Shown: in pieces, positions 1,054 through 29,500 of the stretch
Layout: every line of letters starts with the position of its first letter
How positions within the stretch are numbered: position 1 is the stretch's first letter
Assembly: GCA_964483535.1 (NCBI GenBank)
Contig: CAZABZ010000001.1
Location: 8,594-72,593 of the forward strand
DNA length: 64,000 bases
From: an uncultured Planctomycetales bacterium
GTDB lineage: Bacteria; Omnitrophota; Gorgyraeia; Zapsychrales; Fredricksoniimonadaceae
Direction of reading: 5' to 3'
Position numbers and translations under genes: made by a program
The notes under the pieces: generated by a model
Databases searched by the model: none
What the model was told of the DNA's origin: nothing
Seen by the model: only the letters and a program-made list of their open reading frames with translations

Positions 1054-1067
1054 GAAATTCTTTATGC

Positions 1068-5519: not shown

Positions 5520-5548
5520 GTTTTCTCTCCTTTCTAACGGGGTTGTTT

Positions 5549-8500
5549 TTAGACCTCTATTGTGTACGCATACGTTGTTGATGTATAACTAATATCATAT
5601 GTAAATACAGCCATCAGCGGCGGTATTAAATTGTCAAATCCTGACCAGAAACCGCGGCTGTTGTGGTCCATGCCCATTGAACTTTCCGCCCACAGCATAA
5701 ATTGCCTCTCCCTGACTGTTATGACAATTTTAATAACGGTAATATAAATGATACGTACGGCATGGAAGAACCATTTTACAAATATCCATTCAAAAAATAA
5801 CGGGAAGCCCCAGATCCCATATAAAAAGAGAAACGCGGGGCCCTCGTTAAAAATTGTGCCATTGCGAGGAGCATTTTCCAACGACGAAGCTCCGCTTCTT
5901 GCTTCCGCAAGAAAACAACGGGACCACGCCCCAAAAAACAGGGCTCCCAAAGACGCTGGTCGAAACGCTTCCAAGGGCCGGACTACTCCAATGATTTTTA
6001 GCCGATGCCGAATAGTTCTGGGCGTATTCATTGATGCTGGCGCCGGCAAAATATTCATCCTGCCGGTTACCGGCGCTGACGCCCCACTTGGATTAATAGG
6101 CCGCGTTAATATAAAGCAAAGGTCGGACAACATCAGCGGGAAGAACACGATTGCAATTATGATCAAGGCCATCATTATTCTTTTTCGTATTCTTTCCCAT
6201 TTCTTACTGGAATCTTTGGCAACAGTCGTGTCCGGTTTGAATGTCAGCACAGCCCCGGGGTGTTCCAAATTATATTGACGATGCAAGGCGATGTTCTCGC
6301 GAAGAGAGCGTGCCGATTTAATCGCACGAATTCCTGCCCGACGAGTCAGGGAGGCGGGCGAATCATCCCCTGGTAAATGCCCATGCCAGCGCATAAGCAC
6401 CCCTACAGGAAGTATGTAAAAGAATGGGGCCTCAAACCGCGGCGCTACTTCCAGTTCAATCCATCGGTGAATACTTTCATGGTCTGGTTCCCATTTAAAG
6501 AAACTCACTATTCTCCTCAGCCAGTACAAGAAATAGCCAATACGATAGGTGATCCCCAGAGTCAACGGCATTTTTGTAGGGACGGGGGATAGAACCACCG
6601 CCGCCATCATGGCCTTCTTCACAGCTTTGGCAGCCTCCGGCCAAATAATCTGCACGGAAAAGACCCCTTCGATCCCCTGTAAAGGCCTGGCAATATCCTC
6701 TTTGGTCAATAACTTCATACTCCTGGCCGTAAAATGAAGCTCCCCTTGCTCCGGGTTACTTTTCATTTCTATGCCTTCAAGCAGATTGGCTTCCTCTAAT
6801 TTATCCTGTACTTTTTGGGCAATGTCTATCATATTCGCGCCTTGCACGATAATCGAAATTTCCGCCTGCGACTGCATAAAGTTACGCAATTGATCCGGTT
6901 TAATCAAATCCATGGCCAAAGCCGCGCACAATTCATTAAAACGGAAATTGCCTTCATTTTGAGCCAACCGGCGTTCTTCATTAAATCTGGCTATAAAAAT
7001 AAACGTCTCCTCAGAGAATGGCCCCCATCCCAATTCTTTGATGATCCCCATCAGTAAATCTTTGCCTCGTTCGACCGCGGCGTTATATTCATTGCGATTT
7101 TGCAGATATGCCAGCATCAGACGCGCCCGCAATGACTGTATTTTATCCCGCAAATTCTGCCGAACATTAATATCTCCCCTCACATCAATCGATAGGCCTT
7201 GTGTGACTTGCTCCAAAACCATACCAGCCCGTAAAGGGGCATAGGGGAGTAATCTCCCCTTACGGCCGCGCTTAAATTGTTCCAACTGCCCCAACACATA
7301 CGGATGATTACCCTCCCCTAAAACAAAACCCCGGTATTGGTCATCAAGCTGGATTTTACGATGCATGGCCGCGTCAAAGGGAATGGCCTTATCCGGCAAG
7401 GTGATAACAGCAAGCGACTTCCCACCTTTGGGGCCCGTAAGTAATAAGAAAATATACATGCGTTCATTGGCCCGTTCAAAAAGAAGGCGCAAATTCGTGT
7501 CAATGTCCACCCCCAGTTGCAATTCATCCCCGGGAAGCGCTTGTCCCTTTATGCCATCATTTTTCAATACATCATTTGCCTTAAAAGCCCAATGCGCGCC
7601 GGAAATAACTGGCGCCACTAAAATATGATCGGGTTGAAAACCAAAACGGTATTTCAAATAATCGGCCTTAGCCATGACTTGTATTTCCCATTTGCGACCG
7701 TCATCAATTAAATTAATATGGGAAGCGCTATAGCCATGTCTTGTATCATTTTTAAACTTTGTTTCTTTAACTCGATCACCCCATGCATTACGGACACCTA
7801 CTTCCGCGAACAGAGCATCCTCTTTATTTTGGGTAATAACCATAACTCTAAGCACATCCCCCAATTGATCAAATTTTTCATATTTGTTAGTTTTAGATTT
7901 TATTTTATCGTATATCGAAGCCAGACCTTTAAGATCCACATGAATTTGAATACCTGGGATCCCTTGTAAGATGCTCTTCATTTTTTTACGCATCTCTTTA
8001 GCAATATCTATAAACCGCTCTTCCACTATGCCTACGGCATACTCAATGTCCTTGTGCTCTGCGATGGCTTGATTAACATTCTTTGCAATGTCAAGTATTT
8101 CGGCTATTTTTCTGCCAATATCCTTAAATTCCTCCGGATGTTCCACCCTAAAAATACCGTCGCGCAAATCTTCCACCATCCGGGCGGAATTTAACCTCCC
8201 TGCCAAAGCCATGTATAAATGCCTGACCTTCCTTATAGAAAATTTCTGTTGTTGAGGGTCTCCATAACGGGTCTGCCATAATGTCAAAGCAAAAAGGACA
8301 TACAACACCCTGGCATCGCCACCAGTCATTTGAATGATAGCATTCATGTAATTAAGAAATGTTGAATCCGTCCTAAGTCTTTTGAATGTCTCATTCCAAT
8401 ACGGCCAGGCCATGATGGTTGCGGCGCGGTCTATCACCGACCCCACATTAGGCCCTAAATTAAGACTTTGCCTAATGTCCGCCTGCTTGCTTTTGGGGGA

Positions 8501-11500
8501 CGTCATGATCCTCAACTGGGCCAATGCCGCCTCTACTGTAACCGTATCATTCGTCCACTGGGAAATCTGACGACGGACAAAGGACTGTCCCTTTTCCCGT
8601 TTCTCACTGAAATCCTTGGTTCCTGTCGTAGAGGATTTGAATGTCAGCACAGCCCCGGGGGTTTCTAAATTATACTGACGATGCAAGGCAATGTTCTCGC
8701 GAAGAGAACGCGCCGATTTAATCATGCGAATTCCTGCCCGACGAGTCAGGGCGATGAGTGAATAATCCCCCGGTAGATGCCTATGCCAGCGCATAATCCG
8801 CTCCAAAGGAAGCATATAAAATAACGGCGCCTCGAGCCGCGGCGCTACTTCCACTTCAATCCAACGGTGAATACTTTCATAACCTGGTTCCCATTTAAAG
8901 AAACTCCTTATTCTCCCAACCCAATACAACAAATAGCCAATAAAATAGGTGATCCCAAAAGTCAATGGCATTTTGGGAGAGACGAGCAGTAGTGGGGCCA
9001 CCACCGCCTGTTGGAGGCCAAGCAATCCCACCTTGCTGCGGCCAGGATCTTTACTCTCCAGAGGCTCAGAGAGAAGACAGTCTTTAAAGAGCTTCTTTTG
9101 TTCGTCGGTAAATTTAAAATCTCCGGCAATCGCATCCATAAGCCCGGATAGGTCTCCTCGGACAAGATGAGTACGCTCGGGGAAGGTAGCTTGAACCCAG
9201 CCCAGAAAAGCCTTAGTCCCGGCTTTCGTTTTCATCAACTTCCAGCCCATGAGGTCTTTCAGGGTGTATTTCTCTAAAATATCCTGATAAAATGTCGCGG
9301 CTTTAAAAACGGGATTAGGAATACGTTCACCCGGATGTGTACCATTAATCTTAAGTGGAATAAATACTGTCTGGTAAAGATGTGCCCAGAAGATGTATCG
9401 CTCTTTGTTATCAGACAAACTTCTCGAAAGGAAGATTCTCTTTAACACAGCGACACGATCAACTGCAACAGGTGCGTTAAGTTCGGCATAAATTAGGACC
9501 TTAACATAATCTTTCCATACCCTAAAAAGAAAGAAGGAATCATCAATGATATTTTTGGCCTGATTGAGAAAGGAGCCAGCTCCTTTCCCTGCTTCAAGGG
9601 ACTCGCGGGCTTGCGACAAAATACCAAAAAACGATTTTAAGTCAGGCTCGCCTTTGATATCCTCCATCTTGCGTATGCCAAATATACATCCGAGCGCACT
9701 ATCAACATGCCTGCCTCCCAAGCAAAGTTCAGTATCATTAAGAAGCCCCGCTAACTTGATATTTCTCCTTTTAATCTCTCCCCAAAGTTGTGTCAGTTTC
9801 TTATCTACAAGCTTGCCGGCAATAACAGCTGCGTTTCGACTACGCATGTCGGTGTACCATGCGGCCGTCCGCAATAGTCGACTGGCAGTAAACCAACCCT
9901 GTTTACCGCTCTGAATCGCCTCTGAGGCCTCATTTATAAGTCTCCAGGCAATACGTTTCTCTTTAACCTTTAGTAACTTTGGATCCCCCAGATAATCAAG
10001 AAGTTCCTCCAGAGATGCCTTCAATCCGGATGTATTTTCACCGTTTTGCTCTGAAAGTATCTTCTTAAGCTCTGAACTTACTTCCATGACCTTGCGGCGG
10101 TCCTTAAGCTCACTTTCGATGGCATCGCAAATACTACGAAAACGTTCCCACTTAACTCGATTAGCAAGGCGTCTGTTCCTTATGGTAATCTTGAGAGCGC
10201 TTTGTGGAAATTTCTCAGCAGTCTTTTTAATGGCTTGCGTGTGGGCTTGGGCCCTCGTCAATGGATTCTGGCGGTCCAGAAACAGACGGTTTTCGATAAG
10301 TCCGTGATAAGCATCTTCGCGGACCAAATTTTTACTGAGTTTATAAACAAGTTCGGAGGAATAATAAATTTCCAGCGTGGAATTTTTACCGCGGGTAAGC
10401 TTGTCCCAAATAAATCCTCTTGGCGGAGCGCGCGAAATCTGCTGGTTCAAAATGAACAGCCTCACCGGAACATCGACAATCTCTTCAAATATCTTCTGGT
10501 CAACATTAACTTCGTCAAACGCCTTCTGAATGATAAGTTTCTTGATGTCCTTCACGTTTTGCGTCGAAACATTCCCTGAACATCCCGGCCCGCCCTTTAA
10601 AGTATCCCTTGTATTGATTTTCGACCCAATCCTGATATCCACGAATAACTCATTGGAATCCTCTGAGGCCAGAATAGTGGCCGCTTGAACTAAATATGAG
10701 ATAAGGTCCTTCTCCAATGCCAAAACCGGGACCGCAGCCGGAACCAGATGGAGAAGTTGCCGGTTGAGGTGAAGAATATAATCCCTGGTTATTTCGTCAC
10801 GGCGTACAATAAGCCAGGATTCAAGCATCTCATCATAAGATGGCGGCACGCGGATTTCCATGGAGGCCATTGTGTCAAGAATTTTACTTATATGCTCATC
10901 CAACCCATACGATGCTTTTGCTTTTTTAAACGCTTTTAATATATATTGTTTTTCTTTTTGCGTCACAGGCTTATTGACTTCCGTCCAGGTCATGGTCTGT
11001 TTTTGCCTCAACTTTTCTTCCTGCGCCGGATGGGACGACTTGTCGGATACGGCCCTCGCCTTTGCCGGTTTAAAAATTATGGACCTTTGATATACTTCCT
11101 GAAGTCCAACAACGATTTGCATAAAACCAATCAGCTCCAAAATATACTTAAAGACTGCATGAGAAGCGGGAATATAAAACAGCGTGGAGAACAAAAACAC
11201 TGTCCCAACAAAAAAGCCCAATAACCCGTTATAGAAAAGTGTTATCGCGTTTACGCCATCCATGAGACCCGAATAAAGAATGTCCTTCAATGAAGCATGA
11301 GCTTTACGTCCCTGAAGCTTTGCCAACAAGAACATCATGGCCATATTAAACGCTGTGATCCCGGATATAGATAAAATAATCCGGACGACTTTATTTATCC
11401 GCACGTATTTCGGCAGGCCGGCCTGCGCCGCTGAAAAATGCATCGTCAATCCATAACGCGGAAAGACTTCCAAAATCTTCGACAACGCCGGGTGTTGCTC

Positions 11501-14500
11501 CACCGCCCTGACAAACTCCCTTTCCGGCCCCAACCTTCTGCCATGAAATCTCTTTACGCTGTAATAGGTGTGCCACGCCAGATTGGCCGCAAACATAGCT
11601 TCCAGCGACTGTATCCTATGCTCGGCATCATTGGCAGGAGCGTTACGTTTCTTCAAGTTCAAAGCGTTGAGCGCCACCTCAGACAGGTCCAGGTTAATGT
11701 CATTCTTTTTTATGAATGGATCGGTACACGCATCTTTAAAATCAGCGACATCAGGATAAAGGACATGCGCCTTGGCCTTAACCTTGGCGCCAATCTTCGA
11801 GTTTGACAACGCCTCATTGAGCCATTCCGCAGACAATTTAGTCGCATCCAGCGTGGCATCCACATAATCCGCCGGCGTATAGCTGTCAAAATCCTGGTTA
11901 CGCATGAAAAGGTCGTGGTCACGTGTATCGTCCCCCTGGAAAATACAGCTATATCCGTCCTTTATTTCCAACGTCCCCCGCAATGAAAACGGAATATTAT
12001 TTTTTACTTTATCAAATAACGAAAAGATATCAAAAATCACGGAGTCGCTGGAAACGGGATTAATCATAAAACCGGCACTCTTGTCTTCTTTCCATGCCTT
12101 AGACTTCACATAAGCCTCGATCTTCTTCCCGATACCCGCCGCCCCCCTTGTAAATTCGACAATTTCACTCTTCTTGTCAGGGTTAAACGAAATGTAATTA
12201 AAGCGTTTCTGCAAAATATCCTCTGTCCTTGCTTTGGGGTAAGGACTGTCCCACAACAGCAACATCTGGTAAATAACTTCCCGGGTGTACTTTTTGTGCT
12301 TGCGTAGAAGGTCCAATATCTCCCTCAATGTTTCCGGTATATCATTGGTTTTTTCAAAATAGTCATACCAGCGACAGATCATGGCGACTAACGCCTTATA
12401 TTCTACGGGGTCCCCTCCGCTGGTAATATCAATGCTCCCATCACGAGCACATTGCCATGGCCTTCCCTTGTTTTGCGGGTATTTCTTATTAAAAACATCC
12501 TCTGGCAAATCATGGATCACTTGCTCGTGTTTGATATTGACAACACGGAAAAGTTTCCTGAATTCTGCGACCAGGCCGTCAAAATACGGACTGGTAATAT
12601 TTGCCCCCCTCAGATAGGCCTGCAAAAATTCCCCATCTTTATTGATGTCGTTATAATGTGTTTCCTTGATGATCGCGATCGTCATGATAATATCCAAAAT
12701 CTCCCGGCCTGTAGGTTTGGTCCCCCTATCTTCTAAAAATTTCAAACGTTCCAATTTTTGTGAAATACCTACTTCGGTCCCGACTTGGCGGCAGCCCCTG
12801 TTACGAGTAAGAATATGGAAAAAACGTTGCGCGTACAGCCGCGCCAGGCAAGGATCCAGAAACTCGAGGAGTTCCTGCGGAACAAGGCTGCGATCAAACG
12901 CCTTTTCTACAATAAAATAAGTGTCTTCAATCAACGCGCCGGCGGCCGCCAATTTTTTATGCGCGATCGACCTTGGATTATCTAATAAATATCGAAGCGC
13001 CAGACGATAAAAAATGACCGCCCTCATCGATGAGAAATATTGTTCGGCATTACCTTCTAAATAACGCTTCAAATTGATCTCCAGCACATTCGCGAAACGG
13101 TACCCGTAATGAACGGCCCAGTTATCATCATAAACAAATGTCGCTTTAAACGAAAACAGACTGTCTGATCGGTTCTGTGGCAACGCCGGGACCACCTGGT
13201 ACCTCAAACAAATATTCACATTCCGTCCAACCCATAAAATCCGGATCATCGTGTTATAAAATTCTTCTTTCAGGGCTTGATCTTCCACGGATTTTTCGTG
13301 CCATTTCTCCCACAGGGCATCAATGACTTGCTCCATCCCTTTCCCCTGTATCCACTGTATCCACCCTATTGGAAGATCCTCCTCTTTTCGCGGCGGAAAT
13401 AAACATACACTGACCGCTTTAGAGAACTCTTCCTTTGATTTAAAAAGATAACCAAAGCTATCTTCCTGGGGCGTAAAATATCTTTCAAAACAACGCTTGA
13501 CGCGGTCTTCTAATTTCTTCCTCTCGCTTTTATTTATTTGCCCGACCAAATACCAGGCCGGGATCTTTTCAGGCTCTTTTTTCGGCGATATAACGCAAGC
13601 TTTGTCTGCGGCGGCTTTATCTTTCACTGCCGAAGATTTTCCATTTGCCAACGAGCCAAACTTCTTTTGCCAGCTGCGGACAAAAATGGCAGCTATCAAG
13701 CTGACGCCAACTAAAACCATGGTCCACTTGAGCATCCCCCCAAGCCACATAGACGCGATGCTCACCGCATTGATCGCCAACAATGCCGGCATTGCACACA
13801 AACCTTTCGCATCATTCGTGAAGTCCACTAACTGACGAAAGATGTTGACACTGTTCGGCGCGTCTTTCCCTTCAATGGGACAAGAGCGGTCATGAAGAAC
13901 GTCCATCTGAATGCGGGCCCCTGCCTCGATCGTCTCATCCTCTTTTTGCATCTCGCTTAACTGTGCCAGCCTGTCAGACCCTTCAAACTCGGCTAACAAA
14001 CCAGCCAAAGGCGCATTCTTATTTTCAATGAAACCTCTGACGTGTCTGTCCAAAAGACGCGACATGGCTGAAGGATATCTTCCCTGCCAGTACGCGCGTG
14101 TAAAAAGACCTTTGAGTTGCGATGGGTTAAACGCCTGGCCATTATGAATAAATACCGTGCGTATCCCCCGATCAAAGCCATAAAGTTCCACCCCAAAATC
14201 ACCATGCACAAACTTTTCGGTCTCTATCGAAGCACGCTTCTGTAAAGCCTTAAACATTCTGCTAACCCAGAACACGATAACCTCATGAAGCATCTCCCGT
14301 GTTTCCTTCTGTTGTGGGCAAATGCTTTCTAACGCTTCCGGTAAAGAACGGCTGCTGAAATCGTCCACCCATTTCTCAAACTGTTCTTCAAGGCTCCCCC
14401 CGAAAATCTTTTCCGAAAAGCGTTCTTTCAAGAACCAATCCTCTCCACGCAAGTCAATAAAAGCATGTATGAAATCCTTCGTCCGCTCATCATATGCCGC

Positions 14501-17500
14501 ATAACTCGGCACCAAAGATAAACCATAAAAAATCATCTGGATATCTGATTCGACTGGATCTTTGAACCCACGCGTACGGTCCTCAAAACGTACAGCCGTC
14601 CTGTCCGCGTCATCATGAAGACGGTAACGAAGATCGGAGAAATCCAAGAATGCTTCCGCATTGGTGTATTTGCCCTCAAAAATGTAAATAACATCTTTTT
14701 CAAAAACAATCGGAATATCTTGTCTTTCCGTCTGTCCACGGATATAAGCATTTTTGATCACATACTCCTGACGTTTGGAACCGGAGGCGCGAAATGCGTG
14801 TAAGTTCCTTAAAAGATCTAGGGCCAAAGTAAAATCAAAAAAGCCCTCTTCTCCCAGATACTCCTGACCTGGCTTAAGATTGCCGACCATGTCACCTAAA
14901 AGCGCTCTTTCCTGTGGGGTCAAAACCAACGGTCCGTTGGCCGGGTCATGGGCTACAACTTTCTGCACAGCTTCCCGCCACTGGCGGTCTCTAAGGAACC
15001 AGTCCAGCTCAATGATCTTCACACGTGCGGTATCCGCTAGAAACTTCTCAATGAGTTTGGCAATGATCGTCTTCCCTGAACCTGAACCGCCGTCAATGGT
15101 GACAATAGGAGCATTACCTTCAACCCCGCGGGCAAGACGTTCACGGATATGTCTTACGATCGAAATGACAAACGGTGTCATACATGACTGAAGATAGTCA
15201 AGGGAAGTAGCAAATATCGGGTTGCCTGTCTTGGGATCTATCGGAGGATGATTATAATAACCGTGAGCTAAAGCAAACTCATGAGCAGGCAAAGGAATAA
15301 CCGCCGGGTCCTGTCCGTAACGATAACGTGTCGAAGAAATCGACAAATCGATCTGTGGATGTTTCAACAACAGTACCGGCAAATCCATTTGCCCGCCATA
15401 AAGGGCCTTGCCCTGTTGATTATACAACTCCATTCTTTCCTGCGTTATGCCCAGGCCAAACTTGCCGCGTTGTATCCAGCCAATACTAATACGATGCCGC
15501 GGATCTATCCTGTCTTCGTTTTTCTTTAAAATACTGTAAAACAGCTCGTAATAGTGAACGACCCGCTTTTCGTTCTCGATCCCAAGCAAATACACGAAAT
15601 GGACCCGTCGGCCACGGTTATAATCCATCAATTGCAGCATCTCTTCAAATCCTTCTCGCTCATTATCCGGCTCACTGCCAAAATCAGTATAACGTACCAG
15701 AGGCCCCATCCCGTCGATGGACAATTTGGTCATCATATGTCGATGTTCGGTGGAAACCTTCTCTGAGCGATAAACCTTCTTGTAACTGATACGACCCTGC
15801 ACCCTGATGGCCACAAAATCAAGTCCGAGTAAAGCAATAGCAAATAACGACGGTATCAAATGCCCATGGTTGGGAGGATTGCCGGCAATTGGCATAAGCC
15901 CTATCTTGATTTCCTGATCAGGATCGGCATCCTCCAGCGCCACCGGCCCATCATCCTCGATAGAATATCTTAATAATTTCGCGCGCTTAAACGGATTTGT
16001 GACCTTGCGACGAACATTTTCTTCAATCATCCCGAACACAGTCTCATAAGCTCTGAGGATCCTACTATTGAGGAACTTGTTGCTGCGATCACGGATCTGC
16101 GGGTCCGCTTTAATTTGCTGGTCAACAACATTGGCCAGCACTCCTTGCACGGCCTTAATCGCTGTAACATGGCGGGTTGCGGGATCCTGACCACGTTTGC
16201 CTTCAAGCCACCGGCGCAAAATAACTTCACGGGCAGAATTCTGCTCTTCAGTGAGATTAAATTCTTTACCGTGTGTGGCTAAGGCGCGAATTTCATGTCC
16301 AAGACTTAACGCTGTTTCAAGGCGGGTGCTATAAGCGGGATAATAGGTGCTGGCCCAAAGGTATTCCAGGCCATCTTCGATAGTAGACGTGGCCAAGAAC
16401 CCTTTAAAAGGCGCGCCTTTTAACAGGCCTGCCCTTCCCATCCAACGCAGTTTGGCCGCAGCCTGGCTGTCGCCAGTTTCTTCAAGGCCGCGGGCCATCA
16501 GTTCCCACATCTCCTCGGGGATGTCCGTCACCTTGCTCCGATCTAACTGTGTGAACTCATCCGCCACGATCTTCTCATAAGGAATGTCCCTCATTTCTAA
16601 AGGCATAATGGCCTCGGGCAGACGGCGGGTGGGGTCTTTTTTGCTTGAGGATGGCAAATTGTCTTTGGTCTGACATTGTGTCAGAAAATCATGAAGGAAA
16701 TGTTTCTTAAAACTCGCAACATACGCCAACTTTCTCTCTGCATCTGTAAGTTTATTCGCTTTGGCATATCTCTTGGATTCTTTCACAACCAATTGATAAA
16801 GCTCTTGCAATCCTTGAATGGTATATTCCGATTTTATCCTTCCATCAGCATTTAAATATTTAGCTAAGAATTTCTTCCTTTCAGTAGGGATATGATAACC
16901 ATAGCTTGCAGTTGTCATAATTCCGTCTTCTTCCAACACATCACCGTCAGAAACAAACAATGCGTTCTTGTCCCCATCAATAACAACTTTTGATCCTTCC
17001 TTAAGTTTCAGGCCGTCTTTCAAAACAATTCCCTGCCCCGCTCCTGTTAATTGCCACTTAGCAACAGCAAGATTAATTAAAGAAGGAATGCCATCCAGAC
17101 GAGTCAAGTCAGCTTCATGAGAAGAACTATTGCCATAAGTCGTAATCAGGCCTGCTTTGGGATAATCAAACATCACCTCTAAGACCTGCTCTTGATTGCC
17201 TTCGTGCGCAAGAAAAATAACCGGCTTGTTTTCACTCATCAGCTTACGGGCTTTATTAATATTCCAAACAAGATATCCTTGCATAGCCCCGGAGGTTGAA
17301 GCTTCGCCTTGAGCAAGCCTCTTGGCCTTAACGCCTTTTTTAACTTTATATATTCTTCTCACTCCTAATTTATCTTGTAGTTTTTCAATCCGTGGAATGG
17401 CGCGGGCCTCTGAAATCTTACCTTGAGCTAATTGCTCTTTGATATAGGCGATTTCCGCTTGTGGAGCAAAATTTATGTTTCGAGTTTGCAAGAAATAAAT

Positions 17501-20500
17501 CTTCCCGCCATTCACAACAAACTCAACTTCCTGTGGGCCGACTGCTTCCTCTAACTTTTTGCGTACCGCAAGAAGTTGGCGATAAATACGCGGTGCTGTC
17601 TGCGCCAATTTATTAATATCCTGCCCCTTCCGTCCGCCAGTCATCAATTCCTCACCTTTGGCATTTTCAAGATACTGTCCAAATAAAACTTTTTCATTCG
17701 TATTGGGATTACGGGTTGAAAAAACTCCCACGGCATAAAAAGGCCGTGAAGGACCTTTCCCGCTTATCCACAACTGAATAATAATTGGCAGGTCATACGC
17801 CTCCCCCAAACCTTCTCTGCGACGGTAATCTTTAGCCTTCTCTGAATACCATGCTTGCGCAACTTCACGAATAGCGACTAAAAGATCATTTGTGTTGATT
17901 ATGGTTTTAAGAACGCCGGGCATTGATCTCTTGGGATTACTGCGAACCGAATAAGAAACTGATAAATCATCGGACACTCCCGCTTTATGTAATTCTTTAA
18001 AAATCAAAGCCATAAAATCTTCTGCCTTTATTTGGGAAGACTCTATGATAATTTTCACCAAATCTTCAGAAAGAACTATGCCCGATGGATATGGAAGCCC
18101 CAGCTGATCAAGGATTAAAAATCCCGCTTCCTTATTACCCATCTGAGGCCTATAACATCCTTTGCCTAACAGCCTTACACCAAGTTTCACTCTATTGGCA
18201 GCCAATTGTTCTGCTGAAAATATATGCGATTTTTTAGGAAATGAAATGGCCCGCACTAATCTATCTCTCGCTGCTAAATAAAGAGCAATGAAATCCTTAT
18301 ACTCGGCAGGGACCGAAAGACGCAAGCTGTAATCACCATACCCCCAGTGCTTTAATGCGCTCCTCTCGGGATGGGATTCTGATTTCTCCTCCATATAGGC
18401 CTGCGAAAGGTGAAAATATTGCTTTAAAACATCCAGCATGGGGTCTTGATCAATCCGTCTTTTAATGTTAAGCAACACGCGAGACTCTTCAAAGGTATCG
18501 AATTTATATATCGTATATTTTAAAAGGAAAGTTACAAACTTTGAATTCTTCTGAGAAGGGCCTAAGTAACGAGGCTCAGCATTGTCGCCTCTAAGAATCC
18601 TATCGACTCTATTTTCGAATCTCTGATATAAATCGTACAATTTTTCTGAATCAAGTCTTGGATTAATTTTTTGTGCCGCACGAAAAACAGAAGATAGCCG
18701 CTTCTCCGCCATTACTTTTTCTGGAGTCAATAATTGAGTATTGGCTGTGCCCTCAGCCGAGGTTGAATCCTTGATTATGTCCTGATAACGCTTGACCTGC
18801 GCAATAAAATCTTCAATAGTTCTTGCATTAAACCCGACAGCGGCAACTATTCCTTCCGGCATAGCCAGCACACCAGCCACCTTCGTTTCAAAAATCCCAG
18901 CCGCGCCGATAATGATAAGTGACTGATTCTCCCTGCGAATATCCATAAGTGAACTATTCTCTTCTGCCAACTTTGCCTGGACATCAGACCACTTCTTAAG
19001 AACCACTCCATCAACACCGAGTTTGACCGCTGCGTTGATGGTTTCAATGAACGACGGCTGGACGTCCGTTCCAATCTCAGCAAAGATAATTAGGGCCGGA
19101 TACTCAACACGAATCTTAACTATCTCATCGGCCGTTGGGACAAAGTCGATCATAGTGATAAAGCTAGCTCCTGCCATGGCCCCTTCGTAGATCTGGGCAA
19201 CGTTGGTCGCAAAATAACCGATAACAGCTGATGAGTTCTTCGTGCGAACGGCCTTTAGTACATCGATTATATCAACCGTTGGAATAAAATTATTGGCAAT
19301 CAAAATCTCTGCAAACTGTACTAATGTAGCTGCCTCCAGCCCCGCATAGCCCTTGCCGCCGGTGACGGTGTGCAGGCCGACTTCAATACGGGAAGCCATG
19401 ATAACAGCCTTGATATCATCTTTGGCTATAGCCCCCTCCTCTGGGACAACCTCATTCCCAACGGCCATCTGCATCAGCTTTCTCATCTGCACCCCAACAT
19501 CCCCAGAATCTCTGTGATCGAAATTCTTAATAGTTGCAACAGCCGCTGCATTATCAGACAACACCGGCGCAGAGATCGTGCGAGCATCGTTGACGATCCT
19601 CATAAATTCCTGATCCCCGTTGTCCTTCATGGCGAGGAAAAGAGGAGGAATATAAATAATGCTCGCGAGATTTCGTCCTTCGGGATTCCAATCGCCGGAG
19701 ACATTGCCTTCCCTTAACCCTGCGATAATTGGTTCACACCCTTTAACATGCTGTTGCGCATCCGCGCTGCTGCCTAAAAGAAGGACATCTTTCAGCCCGC
19801 GCTTTAACGCAATAGCGGCTAATTCCTTCAGCGCAACTTCCCCAGCTAAAGTAATAAATACAACTTTGCCATCTACGTCCTTGCCTATTATAGAGAAGGA
19901 CGCCTTTTTGGTTTGGATTTCCCAAGCTACGGCATTAGGTTCAAGGGCCGGGAATTTATACTCGATGGTGTCTGATACATCTTCACCCTTATTGTTAATG
20001 ACCACAACCCCGCCAACAGCAAAACGGATCTTTGAAATATCGCTGTCCCTGACTGGTTTGCTGTCCTCAATATCTACTTTTATAATGCCTGCGGTTGGGC
20101 CATCAATAACAAAGAAATAATAGGTATTAGTCAGAGAAACTACTTTATCAAGCCCGATACCGGGAGCTGTCTTAATAATCAATTTGCCGTTTTGAATAAA
20201 CATGGTCTGAGCTTCCCAGAAATTACCCTGATGACCATTGATAGCAAAAATGGCACCGGTTTTCTTGGCGAAGGCCTTTACAGACAAACCCGGGAACCGT
20301 CTAAATATTTTATTGCGCTCTTTGGCGATTTTAATCGTCTGGGCAAATCGGGCGAAGTCGTATCTTATGCCTTTCTTGCTGGTATATAATTTAACTACAT
20401 TCCCAGAAGGAATAACAACTTCACGGGCCCAAATAGCGCCTTCTTTAGACTGGGTGGTAAAGGTTGTAACATTTAATCCTTCTACGGCTTTAGTGCCAAT

Positions 20501-23500
20501 GATCCCGGCATAAGCAAAAATGGCCTTGATAAATTCATAACTATCCCCACTCAACCCTTCAATGACCTGCTGGGACCTAAGGCCAAGCCCTTTGACGTTT
20601 ACCTCAACAAGATTCTTGGCTAACTCTACGCGCTCTGCGGTCTTTAAACTATTCAAAAGCGTCAACGCATCTTCCCATGCCTGTTGAGGCACAACATTGA
20701 TGCCTTCAATACCACTCTTGCCTTCAAGGATCATATCTTGCTTGCGCAAGTTGGCGGCTATGCGGAACATTTCGCCAATATATGTTTTAATGTAATCTTT
20801 CTGCTCTTTGGACTGGAGTTGTTCATCTGTAATTGTGGTAGTTACGCTGACTCCCTTGACTTCCCCTGAAGCAATCAAATCTGCAAAGGCCTTATTGAAC
20901 ATGCCCTTGGTGCGCAATTGCGCCTGGGGCTTGGTCATATATACAATGGTCAGTGTACGGCCTTTCTGTATTAAGCCCTTTTCGAGCATTTCTTTCCTGC
21001 TCTTGTTGAAATTATCAAGGGTGAATTTCGATTCCTCTTCAAGTACAAAAGCCTCGTTGCTGAGCATCTTGTTAAGTACATCTTCTGAGATTATGCCTTC
21101 CTGTGCTTTGCTCTGGGCTATCTTACGTATGATCTGACGGATCAAATCCGCCTCAGAAGTGCCCACAGCCTCTTGAAGCGAAGCGCCTGCTTCAAGGGCG
21201 GCTTTAACTTCCTTAACATGTTCATCCTTGCTTATTTTTCTCCCGCCGCCTATTTCAACCTCAAATGCATTTTCTACTGCCGCTTCAAGAAGAGCTATTG
21301 TCAAGCGACCAACTCCACCGGAGATAATGATACGTAAAGGATTGTCTTTATTGCTTTTGGAACGAACAACGTCTGCCTTGGCAAAAAAATCCAAAATCTT
21401 ATCAAACACCTGTACAACATCAGCGCCAAGGACCATCAACTGACTGTTTTCATTAGCTAATAACTCAATGCTCTGCTCATCGGCGATATCATTAACAGCC
21501 ATCAACGAAACCATTCTTCTTAATGGCTCAATAGGATTAATTGCTCCCTTGTCCTTAGTCCCGTCTTTAGTCACATCAATCCCTACTTTAGCTAACTCGT
21601 TTTGAAGATATTTATCATCATCCGACAATTTTCCTGTTTTTATATCTTCTGCCACGCCTTCCATTATCTCCTCTATCCGAACTTTAGCTTTCGCTTTAAC
21701 ACGCTCAATTTCTTCCTGACCGACCACTTCAATTATTCCCGCCAATTCATCCATTAAATCCAGAAAAACAGATCCAAACTCTTCCACATAATGTTGCGCG
21801 CGTTTTGTCTCCTCATCTTGTCTCTCTGCATCAAATCGCTTCTTAGATTTAATCTTTAAAGCATACCCGACAGCTCTGCTGACCTGACCAACCTCATCTA
21901 CAATTTTTTGAATCCTTTCTACCCCCGGATTTTGATATCTAAATTCATACGCCATAAAGTTAGGATTGGCTTCCCCTAAAATGCCACCTTCCCTCAATTT
22001 CCCAACAATCTTTGCCCCTTCGTTAACAACTAACGGCCGAAATGGCCACTGATTAAACGGCATTAGTTTGTTTCTTTGAAAATATTGAATATTTTCTTTC
22101 ATTTCCGCCAAAGTTAAATATGGATCAAACATGATAAATCCAACATCCAACCCCAGGCCAAGGTCTTGAAGCGTTCTTAACGAAACAGCTATGTCATCAA
22201 ACTGCATCCCTCGTGAATACCTCTTAAATTGGCTAAGGCTTCCAGCCTCAACACCCATAAAAACTTTTACTAACCCTACCTGCTTTAAACGTATGAACAA
22301 TTTCTTCATTTCCTCATTTTGATTCCCCCTATCGTTACTTTTAAAAACAATATCCGGCCTAGTAAAAATACGGAACGTAAATTTAATCCCATATTTCTTC
22401 GACAATGCCTCAATGCCGTCAGCAATTTGATAAATCCTTGAAATATTCTCTTTGTTTCGGCCTCCAATAAACTCATCATCCGAGAACTCCACCTCAGTTA
22501 TTCCCTGAGACATAACCGATTCTAAGTTCTTCAGCACCCGCTCAACAGTAAACCCTTGCCAACTCGCCGTGTTTCCTTTTTGTACTACTTCTCCTGTCCT
22601 TCTAAAGGACGTTCTTGTGCAATAGGCACAACCTCCCCAAGGACATCCCCGGGAAGTTTGGACTTGAACATTGCCGCCATCCTTGACAATATCCTGATAC
22701 GAACCTACCGCAGGCATATAAGGTAACGTCTGAAGATCTATTGTTTCTCTTTTTGTGTCTACCCTTCTGTTAGTCGCCGGATCTAAGAAAACAAGATTTG
22801 AGACCTCTGAAAGAGAGGCCTTCCCTCTATTAAATTCCACTAATCCTCGTAAAGCAATTTCGCCCTCACCCCTCACAACAACACCTTGAGGATAAATTTC
22901 TAAGAACTTGTCTGGGAAATATGTGGGAAGTTGATTGCCAAAGACCACTAAGGTGTGTTTTGGATCAAAGCCTTGCCTGGCCATCAATTGAGACATAATA
23001 GCCTGCACTAATTCTATTGCCCCTGGTTGTACCGATAACCCTAACATATCCGGCTGATCATTAACGATTTCATCGACTATTCCTCGAATATCATCATAGC
23101 TTCTTGTCCATCGGCTTGATACATCCACCGTCCTTCCAAAATGGCCCTGAAGATCTCCTTTTAATGTTTCCAAAGATAAATTATTCCACGCGTTATAATG
23201 TGCCGGTGACCCAAGCCCAATTAATTTGACTTTGCTTACAATTTGGAAGGTAACAAATTTATTAAAGGCAGGGTGAACGCTGGTAACAACTCCGCTTGCG
23301 ATATTTTCGTTAAGCCAGTTCTTGAATGCTTGCAACATGTAACCGTTTTGGGCAATGATGCCCGCGGTAAGGGCGGCTACGTCATCGTTATCCATATTGG
23401 GATTAGCTAAAGATTGGAATTCATCGATCAATACAGCTTCAACCACAGCAGGTGGCGCGCGGCCTAAATGAGGACTTAAGGTAACTACATTGTTGATTGT

Positions 23501-26500
23501 GTCTGTTTCCGCAACGAAACCATTGGCTGTCTCTGCCACATTCAAGGTAAATTGCGCATCGCTTAAGCCAGCCTTGGCCGCGGCAGCTTCGATCGTGCTG
23601 CGAAGCTGGTCAACTTTTTCTGAAGTCATCTGACCTTCTATGGCTTCCACTGTTGCCTTACCGGCAACGATGGCGACCTCCATAGCCACCTTCGCTTCAT
23701 GCGTGGTGGTGACCTTGATGGGGAAGGGTTTCTTGCTCTCATTGGCTATTGTAAAACTGTGCCTGCTAAGCTTGGAAGCTATAATCACCCCAAGCATCAG
23801 CACCGCTGGTACAAACCAGATCGCGCCAAGAGAATAAAAGACAATTATTCCAACAGTGCTCAAGCCAAGAAGGGCCTGTCCAAAGCTCCACGCATAGGCG
23901 AGGACATAGGCCGCAATCCCAACCAGCGTCACTGTCGTAAACCAACTGGAACGAAAGAGCTTCGGCAGTAAATTTGCATCACCGTACTCTTCATCAACGA
24001 TATTGGTAGTATGAATAAACTTATAAACACCGTTGTACATATAACGCGCCTGATTGGCTGAGAGAGATAACGGTTTACTCTGGGCAATGCCCGCCAGTCG
24101 AGCAATCACAGATATATCCATTTTGTCTGCCGCACGCATTTCCCCAATCTTGTTGTAACGATTGAATTCCCCAAACATCTCATTCGCATGGACCATCAGG
24201 CCTTCCTCATAACCCCAACGGGCAAGGAACCGATCCAGCGCCTCACGGAACCAACGGTCAGATGTCACGCGCTTGTTTTCTGGGAGCCCTTCATTTACAT
24301 AATCAACAAAACGATCCAGGCTGGAACGTTCAATGGTTAGATCTGGCCTAACGATCGGATCAAATGAACGAAATTCATTGGCCGTGGAAGCATTTAAGCG
24401 AGCCACTGCCGTACGGATGACCTTTGTTGCACGTGCGATGAGGACTCCCTGAACAAGCCTAACCCCTCCCTTGAACACCACCGGAACCGCGAGTACGACC
24501 AGTGACGCAATCGGAGCAACCCAAAGAAGAGCGATTGCTATCAGCACCGATGCGGCAACACCCGTCCGCGCCCAATTAACACCAAGGGCCTTCTTTTGTG
24601 CCTCTGCATCATTTAAAGCTTTCTCCCAAGTCTTCTTAATGTCCTCATTAGCTTGACCCAAAATGCGCATCCTGAGCGCCTTGATATCATCACGCACGTT
24701 CACGCGTTCAGCTCCCATCAAAATATCGCGCCAAGCGCGGTATTGAGCGTAGAAGAAGAAAATTCCTGTATCAATGATTGCCATCGCAATCTTAATCGGC
24801 ATAGACCATATCGTTCCACGATATTGAATACGATGGTAAATTGCGCTGTAATCAGGGATCTTCTTGTCATAAATGTTATATGCCCATGGCCAAACTTTCA
24901 AAGCGCGACCAAGCCACGGACGAGACAGGTTCGGGATAACGCCTGGATTATAAACTTGAGGATAAATAAGCCAGCCCAAGATCATATTGAAGTAGAAGAT
25001 TGTCACCGCAAGGATCACTGGGTGAAAATTCACAAGGCACCCGATGATGATAACAAACGGAGCGGCCAAAATCATCCCATAGCGATCACCCTTGCCCTTA
25101 ACAACATCAATATATCGCTGGTTCATATACCAACCGCTGCGGTCTGTCGGAGGGAAGCACGGAACGCCCTGTGTTGCCCAGTCATTAATAGCATCCACAT
25201 AGTTCGGATAAAGCGAACCAAAAATCCCCACGAACCCAGGCTTAATGAACATGCGTTTAAGCAAGATCAGGGTCCCCATCGGCCAACCATAAATCTGATT
25301 GTAGAAATGGTGGGCTGACAAACTGATCGAATGCATAAAAAGATAGCTCATCGCAATGGCAATAATTGAAAGCGGCAAGCCATACCAAGGATTGATCTGG
25401 AGAACCATCAAAATAACAAATGTCAAAGTACCGATCATCCCAGGGACCTTGCGCAAGAAGAAATGGCGCATGCCAAGTGAGGTCAATTTGTAATGTACCG
25501 GGATTGGGCTAAGAAGCGATCGCAGCATCTCTTCATGCTGGAAGAGCTCGGTCACGTCAGCGGCATATTTGTATTCTGGTGTCATGTGATTGATACGACG
25601 GTGTGTCTTGTCCTGAATCATTTCCACATATGAACGATATCTAAGCTTCCCACCTTTTGATATAGCGCCCATACCCATCAGTGAATCTTCAGCCGCGGAT
25701 AAAAGCGGCCCATTCCCATCGCGGCCAGAACGCAGATCAACACCCGCAGCCTTAAACGGTGCGCGAACCTGAGCTGTCAAGCCCGAAACACTTGGGAATG
25801 GCTCGCCGAAGAACGAATCAAGTTCCATCTCCCACTTGCCATAAACTTCCAGCGAACCCATACGGTTCATCGCCATCTGAACAGGATGTGTCCAGGCAGA
25901 TTCCGCGAGGCCACCAGATCCGGAAGCCAACGTTGTTAACATATGCTCAGACCACAGCGGGAACAGACTACCAGTGAGTTTCGGATCCGCATCATACTCT
26001 GCAGTCACAAACGGTAAGAATTGCGCTTCTTCAAACGGGATACGGTTAGAGTTATCCTGACCAATCATATGCCTGGCCTGAGTCATTGCGCCTTTCAACT
26101 CCATCCAAGCCGCGTCCTTAACTGGCATGATCAACATATATCCGGATGGCTCAACAACGGAAACATTCGGTAGATATTTTGAATCTTCGGCCATGCCCGC
26201 TTGAGCAGGGCTAAAGCCGGCGGCCCAGGCACCAACCGGCTGATAATTGTATGCGAACTTTTCCGCAGCAAGTTCTTTATAATTCATTTCAGCTTGGATA
26301 AGATAACTATTTTCATCCTCCGTCAAGGCCTGACCATTGGACTGCTTTGTTTTGATTCCTTGATAAATATCATCCCAAAGATAATCTTCAGTATGATGAC
26401 GATAAGCTTGGAATATCTCGGCGTTACGTAAATTAATGTTCTTGATCGTATTTTCACGTACGCTGACCCAAAGCGTAAATGTTTGCATAAGCCCTTCCAA

Positions 26501-29500
26501 ACGCTTGGCTGTATCCGGACTTATTCCTTGCCTCTTTGGAGTTTCCTGTGGGTAAAGCTGGTTTAATATTTCTCTTTTAAGCTTCTTCCCATCAGCAGTA
26601 CTGGCCAGCTTTTGGAAGTCATCATCAGAAAATGTTACAAAACCTTGAGGCAGTAATTCTCTAATATTTTCATCTATCTCATTTGTTTTCAAATGGTTAA
26701 CGTAATTTTGGAATGGGTCTATGCTATTATTTAGCCAATCGACAGCGCCTCTAATGTCTTTAAACCTATCTGTGGATTTGCCTAATTTTTCTAATAACGG
26801 CTTGATTTTCTCTAATGATTTCCTAAATTCACCCTCCTGAAATTCAAAAGAACGTATTACTGCTAAGGCTTTCTGAACCTCTTCGTCAAATTTAATTTGG
26901 GGATTTTGAGGATCAATCTTACACCCTAACTTAACTAAAAACTCCAGATGTCGCCCATTCATAATACCGTTCCCTAATTGTACACTTGCCAAACAGGCGC
27001 GAACTTCATCCTCAATGGCTTGCAGGTTATCCGCCTTAATGAAATCATATCCTCTGCCCTGACGAATAATGCCTGTGATCCGATCCAAAGCTTCATCGCT
27101 TATGCCATATTTATCTTTCCAGAAATTCCGGAATTCAATATTGTGATTGTCATTATTCAAAAATATTGCTGCCGCATGACGAACGGTCTCGTAATTAACC
27201 AATAAGGATACGCCAGCATAAGTTCCATGCAAAAGTATCCGCGGCATATCGCTGAACCGTTCATACGGTGTTGTGCGTCCATTTGCGGTCGCCGGGATAT
27301 CGGTACGGAAAAATTTGTTAAGGAATTGACGTAGATTATGACGAGCTTCATGATTCAATTTTGTCAAATCACTGTGTGTCAGCGTGAAAGCCTTAAACTT
27401 AGCTTGCTGTGCAACGCTCAACATGGTCTTATTCTCCGCTACAAAACGGTCAATTAGCTGACCATAAATCTTCACTGCCACATCGCGACGGCCACCAAAA
27501 GCGTTATACGCAAATAAATTCTTGAGGCGACTGCGTTGCATCAAACGGTATCCCCAGAACGCGGCCGTAATTCCGCCAAGCATAACGGCACCGGGAATTC
27601 CAAGTCCGATATAACCAAGAACTCCGGCCAACGATGTCAACAATGCAAAACCAGCCTGATAACGGATATCTTCTTTCATGCCGCCAAGACTCTCCCCCTT
27701 AAGAATGCTCAACGCGACATATACATCATCATTGCTGCGAACCGTATACGCGCGGATGTCTTCGGCGAAATCTTTAGCAACGCGGTTGACTGAAAGATAA
27801 AACGTTGTCGAAAGGATCATGGCCCCGAACAGGATTGCCAACGCAAAACCCGGAACAGCCACCAACGCCGCACTCCCTACGCCCAAAGCCCCTAACATCA
27901 TCAGAAGTTTTGGCATAGTCAGGATCGCAACCGCGCCAACACTCAAACTCATATAGAACACTGCATTGCGCAGGATGCGACTGAACTCTTTTAAGCCTTC
28001 GATCATCAAGCCCGTTTCCTGCTGAGTCATATGTAACATTTCAGCCTGCCCGCGGATATAATCACGATCAATCAGGATCATTACCCATGTCTTAAAGATT
28101 GAAACACCCGCAGGGACGTTCCAGAAACGGCGATCAAAAAATAGACGGAAATAATTACCATACAAACGAAGTTTGGACATCGGATAGGTAATAAACGGCA
28201 GATTAAGCTTCTTCATCTCTTCGCGCTTCCAGCTCATGAGATATTTGTCCATGATCTGCTGAACAAACGCTTCATAAATCATAAAAATACGATCTACCGC
28301 AGATCCTGGTGGGTTTCCGTCAACGGTAATCCCATCATACTTAGTGGTCCTCCCATCCTTAGTGATCATCCCATACTTAGTGCGCACATCAAAAAGAACC
28401 TCAATGGCATCTGCCAGCTTGCTATAGAATTGATCATCCTTCAGCGTTCCCTCATTAACCTCATTCAGGATTTGATTCGCTTCAGCGACCGCAGCATCTG
28501 TATCAGCAAGAACATTACCAATCACGCCTGGATGTCCCATCTCTTGGAGAATCTGGTGCAAAATAGCCTTTTGCGTAATCGTAGTCTCCGCCAACATCCG
28601 ACGAGCATCGGCAAGTGTTAGCCCCTGAGCACGCAGATCATGACCTCTCAAGAAATACCGATCCAAATCATCCGGCAAGAAAACCGGACGATGCTGAACA
28701 CGTTTGGATTTCACCCCACAATAGAACGTGTCATACATAACCTGAGCGATATAACGGAAGAAGCGGTCATGTCCTCTGACAATCTCATGGAAGCGACTCG
28801 GCTCTGCTTTAACCTTCTCTGCCCAGCGATTGACCAGTGTCGGACGGGTATAGGCTGTTTCCTGTTCAACCATGCGGACCGTCACATATTCTTCCAGCGG
28901 GATCTCAACATTCCCAAATATCGTCTTACGGCCATCGGCTTCGGTCACGACGTGGAACTTGCGGATCTTAATCGTGATAACCCCATTGGGGGCCAATCGA
29001 AACGCATTCTTGCCTCTCATTTCAATATAACGGCGAACAATCTCTTCGTTAATAAGGTCCCTCTTCATACGAATAGTCACCGCCATCTTCGGAGCATCCG
29101 TTGGCCGGCGTAACAAACCGCCAATATAACGTGTCATCTTGGTAAGATATCCATCATAACGGCTCTGGGTATGAATAAGCGGCTGAGCACCAGCGAGCTC
29201 ACCTATAATATTGCGCACCGCATAAAGGCTTGGATGACGAATCTCCCAACGGCTATCAACTGCTGCCACCACATCGTCTGCAGAAATCGGCATATCATCA
29301 TTGGCTTCTGAGCTTTCAACCTTTGTAATGAGAGCATCAATAATGTCAAGAATAACCTCTTTGGTTGGACGTCCATTAACCAGAGGAAAATTCGCATTGT
29401 TCAAAATACCGCCATTAAGGAAGTTCCATGTCCCCGGAAAAGCATTAATGCCACGAACGAAATCCCTCACATTATTAGCGATGACATCTCTGCCCTCACG

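Follow-up and report, generated by a model that had tools for sequence, protein, structure and literature searches.

A giant Omnitrophota protein carries a predicted PPDK-derived cassette without the pyruvate domain

Introduction

What would a protein of some 20,000 residues do with the ATP-binding and histidine domains of a pyruvate, phosphate dikinase (PPDK) if the domain that handles pyruvate were missing? The question is raised by a 64,000-nucleotide stretch of DNA (the window) from an uncultured Planctomycetales bacterium placed by GTDB in the Omnitrophota (assembly GCA_964483535.1, contig CAZABZ010000001.1, positions 8,594 to 72,593 of the forward strand), in which a giant open reading frame (ORF) on the minus strand encodes such a module. 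PPDK_N is among the 20 most frequent domains of the Omnitrophota giants termed 'Archaeovorins', and these domains have been read as kinases interconverting pyruvate and phosphoenolpyruvate (PEP) (West-Roberts et al., bioRxiv 10.1101/2023.11.21.568195). A sequence-only reading of the window proposed a small-molecule phosphotransferase of the PEP-synthase or rifampin-phosphotransferase (RPH) type. Here we report that residues ~15091-15777 of the giant probably form one autonomous, PPDK-derived enzyme cassette that lacks the PEP/pyruvate barrel and, judging from its sequence, would phosphorylate an acceptor other than pyruvate.

Results

The module is an offshoot of PPDK

The module lies in the following ORF, in which residue n starts at window position 63991-3(n-1):

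5549..63991, minus strand: giant ORF hosting the module; 19,480 amino acids (aa), N-terminus cut by the window edge

The sequence-only reading had singled out window 16922-18184 (minus strand), which corresponds to residues 15270-15690. The arrangement it described, an ATP-grasp domain followed by a PEP-utilizer-type mobile domain, is present, and its similarity to PPDK is well beyond what chance would give; the three peptides it quoted occupy residues 15421-15453, 15488-15506 and 15617-15643, with a histidine, as stated, at 15625. Pfam PPDK_N matched the module with 55.9 bits (E 5e-15, cut-off 27 bits), and the NCBIfam PPDK model TIGR01828 matched it with 156.1 bits (E 1e-45) over profile positions 201-506 of 865. 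When phmmer was run against all Protein Data Bank (PDB) sequences, only PPDKs were returned (E 3e-31 to 1e-20). The best of them was the Clostridium symbiosum enzyme, whose residues 12-117 and 202-508 are covered by the alignment, while the module lacks the PPDK helical subdomain (~118-201), a stretch of about 85 residues.

A profile built from 32 family sequences matched PPDK structures with ~220 bits (E 3e-64), compared to 74 bits for PEP synthase (E 1e-19) and 67 bits for the Listeria rifampin phosphotransferase (E 8e-18). The RPH model NF041857 gave no match to the window sequence, and the best model of the PEP synthase (PEPS) type, NF004881, reached 18.4 bits against a cut-off of 883. The second-best NCBIfam match was NF004531, a model of 534 aa named 'pyruvate, phosphate dikinase' that lacks the C-domain and presumably covers VadK-type proteins (133.7 bits, cut-off 456). 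The module also stays below the equivalog cut-off of TIGR01828 (843 bits). A scan of a collection of representative genomes yielded a Lactobacillus PPDK as its sole match. Taken together, the profile scores place the module as an offshoot of PPDK rather than as a PEPS- or RPH-like enzyme, and outside the PPDK, PEPS, RPH and VadK families as these are set by curated models.

These scores speak against a specific kinship with PEP synthase or RPH. Nor can the order of ATP-grasp and His domain serve as a hallmark of RPH, since PPDK and PEPS share it, and RPH itself places an acceptor-binding domain between the ATP-grasp and its C-terminal His domain (PMC4844700). In the giant, the His domain joins the ATP-grasp directly through a helical linker of the PPDK type.

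The conserved unit extends beyond both catalytic domains

To delimit the unit, residues 14751-15950 were used as query in an exhaustive HMMER search of 1.84 billion representatives, which recovered 80 proteins at E<1e-30. The stretch common to these relatives spans query positions 330/348-1030, that is, residues ~15091-15777, so that limits of 15270-15690 are too narrow. The true unit consists of an N-extension, an ATP-grasp domain, a linker, a His domain and a helical C-extension, with limits as follows (pLDDT values are from an AlphaFold2 (AF2) model):

18215..18721, minus strand: N-extension, residues ~15091-15259; pLDDT mostly 80-92
17477..18214, minus strand: ATP-grasp nucleotide-binding domain of the PPDK type, without the helical subdomain, residues ~15260-15505
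17351..17476, minus strand: helical linker equivalent to PPDK 341-389, residues ~15506-15547, in continuous alignment with PPDK
16928..17350, minus strand: swivelling phospho-His (PEP-utilizer mobile) domain, residues ~15548-15688
17117..17119, minus strand: codon of His15625, the predicted phosphoryl carrier by alignment to PPDK His455, in the loop Y-G-N-S-S-S-H-E-A-D-L-T-R
16661..16927, minus strand: helical C-extension, residues ~15689-15777; pLDDT 82-89

Neither extension matched Pfam or PDB sequences. The N-extension (~170 residues) was modeled as an alpha/beta fold in which a sheet of about six strands stands between two helices and a further, long one. It is an optional part: 11 relatives share it upstream of the core, about a quarter of relatives have it, and some carry repeated copies. 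The C-extension (~90 residues) is found in nearly all relatives, is kept down to ~30% identity and replaces the PEP/pyruvate barrel. It ends in a two-helix hairpin bearing a K-H-F-L-H motif (residues 15763-15767), in which H15767 is invariant and K15763 and H15764 are at least 90% conserved.

The AF2 model of the cassette has a pTM of 0.84, with linker helices at model residues 421-433 and 439-453. Compared with PPDK structures, it scored a TMq of 0.50-0.51 against 1kbl, 1dik and 1jde, 0.34 against 2r82 (the same enzyme in a 'second conformational state') and 0.33-0.35 against maize PPDK (1vbg and 1vbh). We take the set of 1kbl, 1dik and 1jde to show His455 and its domain turned toward the nucleotide domain, and the differences in TM-score fit a model in which the His domain of the cassette is docked on the ATP-grasp.

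Catalytic residues are kept and the clade has its own signature

Conservation was counted over ~50 clade representatives that are 29-63% identical to the copy in the giant. The candidate phospho-histidine of the sequence-only reading, H15625, held up well: in the alignment it takes the place of His455, the catalytic histidine of the C. symbiosum enzyme, and it is kept in every relative scored. Equivalences to PPDK are as follows:

Lys22: K15287, kept in 43/44 clade members
Arg92: R15350, kept in 50/50
Asp321: E15488, Glu in 48/53
Glu323: E15490, kept in 53/53
Gln335: Q15502, kept in 51/53
Arg337: R15504, kept in 52/53
His455: H15625, kept in 54/54
Arg461: equivalent residue kept in 53/54

The residue that follows the carrier histidine is Glu in 49 of 53 clade members, compared to Ala in 79 of ~92 other PPDK-like proteins. 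On a neighbor-joining tree, all 45 sequences bearing the C-extension and all 51 with His-Glu fell inside a single clade of 59 members, and His-Glu was present in none of the 76 PPDK-like proteins outside it; the short two-domain PPDK-like proteins of the hit list also fell outside. Because the catalytic positions are kept across a divergent clade that has its own signature, this pattern suggests a functional, apparently active enzyme whose second half-reaction has changed, and not a relic.

The PEP/pyruvate barrel is missing, and an upstream barrel is unrelated to it

We then looked for the third domain of PPDK. A Pfam scan of all 19,480 residues of the giant, in pieces of 1000 residues, revealed no PF02896 (PEP-utilizers_C) match. 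A custom hidden Markov model (HMM) based on 19 C-terminal domains, each from a full-length PPDK, and run without filters found nothing in the giant and gave a best E of ~1 among 60 clade members; the same model recovered 34 ordinary PPDKs at E<1e-10. In hhalign, the cassette alignment, which includes the C-extension, matched the PPDK C-domain with a probability of 0.3%, compared to 100% (E 1e-67) for the PPDK N-half used as a control. By these profile searches, the PEP/pyruvate TIM barrel is absent from the giant and from ~60 relatives, and because it has been lost, the cassette is most likely not an enzyme that interconverts pyruvate and PEP.

The sequence-only reading had pointed to a TIM-barrel-like segment upstream of the ATP-grasp. 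AF2 supports a (beta/alpha)8 barrel at this site, with eight alternating strand/helix units over residues 14859-15079 (pLDDT ~90, in a model built on 4 sequences), but kinship with the PEP-utilizer barrel is rejected, hhalign against the PPDK barrel giving a probability of 0.9%. The segment is best described as follows:

18758..19423, minus strand: small (beta/alpha)8 barrel of the 2-keto-3-deoxy-6-phosphogluconate (KDPG)/KHG-aldolase type, residues ~14857-15078

The upstream barrel escaped detection by Pfam, and sequence searches with it gave weak matches to HisF, TrpA, TrpF and QRPTase only. Its alignment by hhalign with an approximate E. coli Eda sequence was not significant. Among relatives (P numbers) and fetched loci (L numbers), the homologues P0067 and P0084 match the barrel segment alone and have no cassette, and only P0041 has both; the upstream barrel is therefore a separate module that is not co-inherited with the cassette. 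The barrel carries a motif 'EVGLHTVTxxK' with invariant Glu, His, Thr and Lys. An invariant Lys also stands where predicted strand 6 ends (residue 14999), and it could be a Schiff-base lysine.

The cassette occurs in giant, signal-peptide and stand-alone proteins

Named relatives of the cassette come mostly from metagenome-assembled genomes of Candidatus Omnitrophota/Omnitrophica. One setting is very long ORFs: the frames of L010, L012 and L015 are open throughout their 22-kb loci, P0011 is 7,976 aa long, and P0026 and P0043 are ~6,800 aa each. Duplicates also occur, with two cassette genes on one contig (L009/L014) and two adjoining genes in L019. In another group (P0007, P0009, P0010, P0013 and others), a signal-peptide-like start, judged by eye only, is followed by a conserved N-domain of ~350 residues, and a 'GGIDL' C-domain stands at the end. 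Finally, a stand-alone protein of 712 aa (L013/L018) has no signal peptide and stops 6 residues past the HFLH motif. The neighbors of its gene are divergently oriented and unrelated; they include an AbiE toxin-antitoxin pair, a metallophosphoesterase, a phosphoribosyltransferase, a response regulator and two radical-SAM (rSAM) genes.

Within 600 residues of the cassette, the only conserved partner was the shared N-extension, and the flanks are otherwise unrelated. PADLOC reported no defense-system match for the cassette. Since the same unit is found in giants, in signal-peptide proteins and as a stand-alone protein, with unrelated flanks, we conclude that the cassette is an autonomous, shuffled mobile unit.

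A word-index homologue search returned only 6 ordinary PPDKs for a 1200-aa query and nothing for the barrel alignment, and it missed relatives, 50-59% identical over ~500-680 residues, that the exhaustive HMMER search recovered. A result of 'no close homologues' from a word-index search is thus unreliable for such giant-protein segments.

The protein frame seen in the signal-peptide group is also found beside the giant gene. Just downstream of that gene and of a PilZ gene (window 5163-5519), a 1295-aa ORF (window 1068-4955, minus strand) has a signal-peptide-like start, a conserved N-domain of ~350-400 residues and a C-terminal domain of ~60-80 residues with 'GGIDL...PV(V/I)I'; it gave no match in Pfam, NCBIfam or PADLOC. 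The same N/C frame holds a PPDK-like cassette in mid-protein in P0007, P0009, P0010, P0012, P0013, P0017, P0020 and P0022. This type of ORF looks like a polymorphic family of cargo proteins tied to giant genes.

A nucleotidyltransferase-kinase block recurs beside the cassette

Neighboring modules were compared by tblastn of tiles over the whole giant against all fetched loci. Only the cassette and the following two modules recurred:

14429..16153, minus strand: nucleotidyltransferase plus P-loop small-molecule kinase block, residues ~15947-16521
22085..23182, minus strand: B12-binding plus rSAM module, residues 13604-13969 (Pfam 31.8 and 26.9 bits), in the same transmembrane (TM)-free block as the cassette

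The nucleotidyltransferase-kinase block carries the motifs HxGH (16041-16044), ISST (16218-16221) and a P-loop GSGSGKT (16302-16308), and its family matches are weak: udk (uridine kinase) 1e-4, PRK 0.0013, APS_kinase 0.003, CTP_transf_like 0.009 and NadD 0.03. No other piece of the giant was seen again beside the cassette in further giant ORFs. In L012 it lies at 6197-7969, ~850 aa upstream of the cassette (34-44% identity), and in L015 at 12890-14599, ~480 aa downstream (38-40% identity). Order and spacing vary between these loci and all else is different, so that the recurrence of the block suggests a functional coupling of cassette and block.

On the other side of the cassette, the B12-rSAM module is followed by DUF218 (residues 14295-14405) and by a NAGPA-like phosphodiester glycosidase (14579-14739), both of which precede the cassette; the stretch from B12-rSAM to NAGPA occupies window 19775-23182 (minus strand), residues 13604-14739. 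In L020 (ACD_79C, uncultured bacterium), a gene for a B12-rSAM-metallophosphoesterase, similar to residues 13605-14142 (E 3e-41), overlaps the stop of the cassette gene, and a DUF218 gene lies upstream. Since L020 groups DUF218, the cassette and the B12-rSAM-metallophosphoesterase as separate genes, the B12-rSAM/DUF218/NAGPA/cassette block of the giant may be a fused gene cluster.

The segment right after the cassette has its own distribution. Residues 15780-15950 (window 16142-16654, minus strand) are 70-80% identical to parts of P0039, P0045 and P0052, proteins of unrelated lengths that carry this module without the cassette or the nucleotidyltransferase block. This unusually conserved module has no family match; the cassette, by comparison, is at most ~60% identical to anything.

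Features of the host ORF

The giant ORF has no stop codon from its first ATG to the window edge, and the three codons upstream are open as well. A gene call on contig Ga0455670_0001368 of JGI metagenome 3300041809 gives the same giant gene a length of 21,986 aa and puts its true N-terminus ~2,500 residues past the window edge. Window 718-15519 is matched at 100% identity by locus L003. In a crude scan of hydropathy, the giant showed 16 TM-like segments; in this number and in its length it resembles the 'Archaeovorins', which are >10,000 aa long with many TM segments. By the same scan, residues ~13,410-16,730 form a TM-free block that contains the cassette together with the B12-binding/rSAM, DUF218 and NAGPA-like domains, the KDPG-aldolase-like barrel, the HxGH nucleotidyltransferase and the P-loop kinase. 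The rSAM domain in this block, together with the predicted ATP dependence of the cassette, suggests that the cassette is on the cytoplasmic side.

Over most of the remaining ~19,000 residues, Pfam gave no match at E<=0.01. Near the N-terminal third, a ResIII helicase match (25.7 bits) covers residues 2773-2905 (window 55277-55675, minus strand), and SecA_DEAD was not reported by the Pfam scan. In strain variants of the C-terminal part of the giant, compared as pN/pS over contigs that exclude the cassette, few substitutions were seen.

Several other features of the giant are worth recording. Near its C-terminus, residues 18688-18775 (window 7667-7930, minus strand) match the RelA_SpoT nucleotide pyrophosphokinase family with 26.4 bits, just under the cut-off of 27. 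A segment of ~145 residues with 'SFFKWEP..ESIHRWIE.EVAPR' is present twice in the same region, the two copies being 70% identical:

8591-9019 and 6191-6625, minus strand: duplicated ~145-residue segment, residues ~18325-18467 and ~19123-19267

Residues 1 to ~1100 (window ~60700-63991, minus strand) contain diverged repeats, apparently of ~300-380 residues, with 25-29% identity (BLAST E 1e-11 to 1e-17). At residues 8522-8549 (window 38345-38428, minus strand), the segment SSIRKHEGFRAWPYVDPNHKQMDIGYGF resembles by eye the catalytic motif of T4-type (GH24) lysozymes, with no Pfam match at E<=0.01.

Discussion

Relation to known dikinases

The cassette shares with PPDK (EC 2.7.9.1; TIGR01828; C. 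symbiosum structures 1KBL and 1DIK) the ATP-grasp, the helical linker and the swivelling His domain, at ~25-30% identity, and K22, R92, E323, Q335, R337, H455 and R461 of PPDK are all kept. It differs in the loss of the PEP/pyruvate barrel and of helical subdomain 118-201, in the loop SSHEA in place of TSHAA, in Glu at D321, and in the added N-extension and KHFLH-bearing C-extension. PEP synthase (TIGR01418) uses the same three-step phospho-His chemistry and the same order of the first two domains, but it has the PEP/pyruvate barrel that the cassette lacks, and it is much more distant in the profile comparison. RPH and the two-component dikinases HpeHI, CreHI and PpsAB (PMC4844700, PMC12167813) resemble the cassette in their ATP-grasp and swivel-His modules, in dikinase logic and in having a non-pyruvate acceptor; unlike the cassette, they carry an acceptor domain either between the ATP-grasp and the C-terminal His domain or on the His-carrying subunit, and the sequence similarity of RPH to the cassette is much lower than that of PPDK.

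VadK (Rv1127c) of Mycobacterium tuberculosis offers the best functional precedent, by analogy. This truncated PPDK, reduced to an ATP-binding and a His domain, has been shown by experiment to autophosphorylate His422 with ATP/Mg2+, and it targets methylcitrate-cycle enzymes (PMC13400623). Both proteins are PPDK derivatives that keep these two domains and have no PEP/pyruvate domain. VadK, however, is a small stand-alone actinobacterial protein, whereas the cassette forms a clade of its own with extra N- and C-domains, and no counterpart of the methylcitrate-cycle targets is found at the cassette.

A possible mechanism

In the reading we favor, the ATP-grasp would bind Mg-ATP and pass a phosphate to His15625, as PPDK and VadK do, and by analogy with these enzymes the cassette is expected to autophosphorylate. 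If PPDK is a guide, this step would run through a pyrophosphoryl-His intermediate, with release of AMP and of Pi or PPi. The His domain would then swing off and phosphorylate some other acceptor than pyruvate, which is unlikely to be used because the barrel is gone. As to what the acceptor is, our preferred guess is a small molecule that is bound by the N- or C-extension and whose phosphorylated product feeds the nucleotidyltransferase-kinase block; the chief alternative is that the acceptor is a protein, as it is for VadK.

Weighing the alternatives

Several observations count against this reading of a functional, barrel-less dikinase. The His domain matched Pfam PEP-utilizers with only 17.8 bits (E 0.0025), under the cut-off of 23.1 bits, although the identity of this domain is settled by other evidence. 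The His loop YGNSSSHEA departs from the canonical GGxTSHAA, with Glu after the His, and D321 is replaced by Glu, so that the activity of the cassette may be altered or lost. The docked state of the His domain was read solely from differences in TM-score. The nucleotidyltransferase-kinase block lies beside the cassette in just 2 of ~12 other large contexts, and since such giants are mosaics of enzymes, this adjacency could stem from chance or shared ancestry. Finally, relatives with a signal peptide would put an ATP-dependent enzyme outside the cytoplasm, which a cytoplasmic dikinase does not explain.

Among the alternatives, the one we take most seriously, although we consider it clearly less probable, is a regulatory histidine kinase like VadK that autophosphorylates and then acts on or binds protein partners, either other domains of the giant or separate enzymes, to tune their activity. 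Such a kinase would have the same two-domain core without the PEP domain, NF004531 is the second-best NCBIfam match, and a position beside many unrelated enzymes might be expected of a general regulator. Yet the match to NF004531 is far under its cut-off, the short two-domain PPDK-like proteins sit outside the cassette clade, no conserved partner adjoins the cassette, and the clade-specific extensions with their invariant His and Lys look more like an added binding site. It is much harder to see the cassette as a genuine PPDK or PEP synthase whose pyruvate site is supplied by another domain or protein, for example the KDPG-aldolase-like barrel 200 residues upstream, a view close to that of West-Roberts et al. 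PPDK is by far the nearest family, the pyruvate/PEP reading is stated in the literature (bioRxiv 10.1101/2023.11.21.568195), and the nearby barrel is of a pyruvate-aldolase type, a fold that binds pyruvate in aldolases, with a homologue that accompanies the cassette in P0041. Nevertheless, no barrel of the PF02896 type was found in the giant or in 60 relatives, the upstream barrel is not homologous to the PF02896 barrel and is lacking in almost every other context of the cassette, the stand-alone protein among them, and the TIGR01828 score of 156 bits compares with a cut-off of 843.

We regard as quite improbable the proposal of the sequence-only reading, a small-molecule dikinase of the RPH/HpeHI type that activates or inactivates an antibiotic or a phenolic compound: the RPH score is 67 bits versus 220 for PPDK, NF041857 gave no match, and instead of a domain of the type that binds rifampin, a PPDK-type linker stands between ATP-grasp and His domain. 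An exported effector that burns ATP in a prey or host cell seems equally improbable to us. Predatory or epibiotic lifestyles are attributed to these organisms, a dikinase lacking an acceptor would hydrolyze ATP to AMP, the starts of P0007, P0009, P0010 and P0013 resemble signal peptides, with N- and C-domains in common with the 1295-aa ORF that adjoins the giant gene, and the same giant has the weak RelA_SpoT match. But those signal peptides were judged by eye only, the copy in the window lies in a TM-free block with an rSAM domain, which needs the cytoplasm, the stand-alone homologue has no signal peptide, and there is neither a toxin or immunity context nor a PADLOC match. Least credible of all is a decayed, non-catalytic remnant whose only role in a mosaic giant is that of a structural spacer; over most of its length the giant shows no recognizable domains and the His-loop motif is off the canon, but key catalytic residues are kept in ~50 divergent representatives, the AF2 model is confident, and a stand-alone version of the gene exists.

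If the barrel-less dikinase is coupled to its recurrent neighbor, a more specific scheme can be imagined, which we put forward as speculation and consider unlikely as it stands. By analogy, the cassette could open a 'phospho-activation line' of three steps within one polypeptide, made up of dikinase, HxGH nucleotidyltransferase and P-loop kinase: the dikinase would phosphorylate a small acceptor, the nucleotidyltransferase would make a nucleoside-diphospho derivative of it, and the kinase would add a further phosphate. The model for such a scheme is the Campylobacter enzyme Cj1418, which we take to belong to the PPDK/RPH superfamily, with its partners. In C. jejuni, the glutamine kinase Cj1418, the cytidylyltransferase Cj1416 and the kinase Cj1415 act in the O-methyl phosphoramidate pathway, which yields CDP-phosphoramidate 3'-phosphate (PMC11800397). 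The dikinase, nucleotidyltransferase and P-loop kinase logic is alike, and the likeness is one of analogy only; in the giant the three are fused in one polypeptide, its nucleotidyltransferase is of the HxGH type, and no hydrolase like Cj1417 was identified. Were the scheme true, the giant would hold its own, PPDK-derived version of the phosphoramidate route of Cj1418, Cj1416 and Cj1415, in which the N- or C-extension is a new acceptor site, and the activated donor would serve to decorate glycans or further polymers that the remainder of the protein handles.

Significance

The host protein is of the same kind as the 'Archaeovorins' and carries the same Pfam match, and the presence of PPDK_N in such giants is already known. 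West-Roberts et al. make no mention of the missing barrel, the limits of the cassette, its clade signature or its occurrence in stand-alone and signal-peptide proteins; what appears to be new is a barrel-less cassette with N- and C-extensions of its own, a His-Glu signature, and stand-alone and signal-peptide forms. Since PPDK_N sits here in a cassette that appears unable to bind pyruvate or PEP in the known way, the reading of these domains in Omnitrophota giants as pyruvate/PEP-interconverting kinases is probably wrong. The cassette would represent a second lineage, after mycobacterial VadK, in which a PPDK has lost its third domain and been repurposed, in this case with shuffling among new flanking domains. 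The 712-aa stand-alone homologue should offer a tractable handle on the biochemistry of these 20,000-residue proteins.

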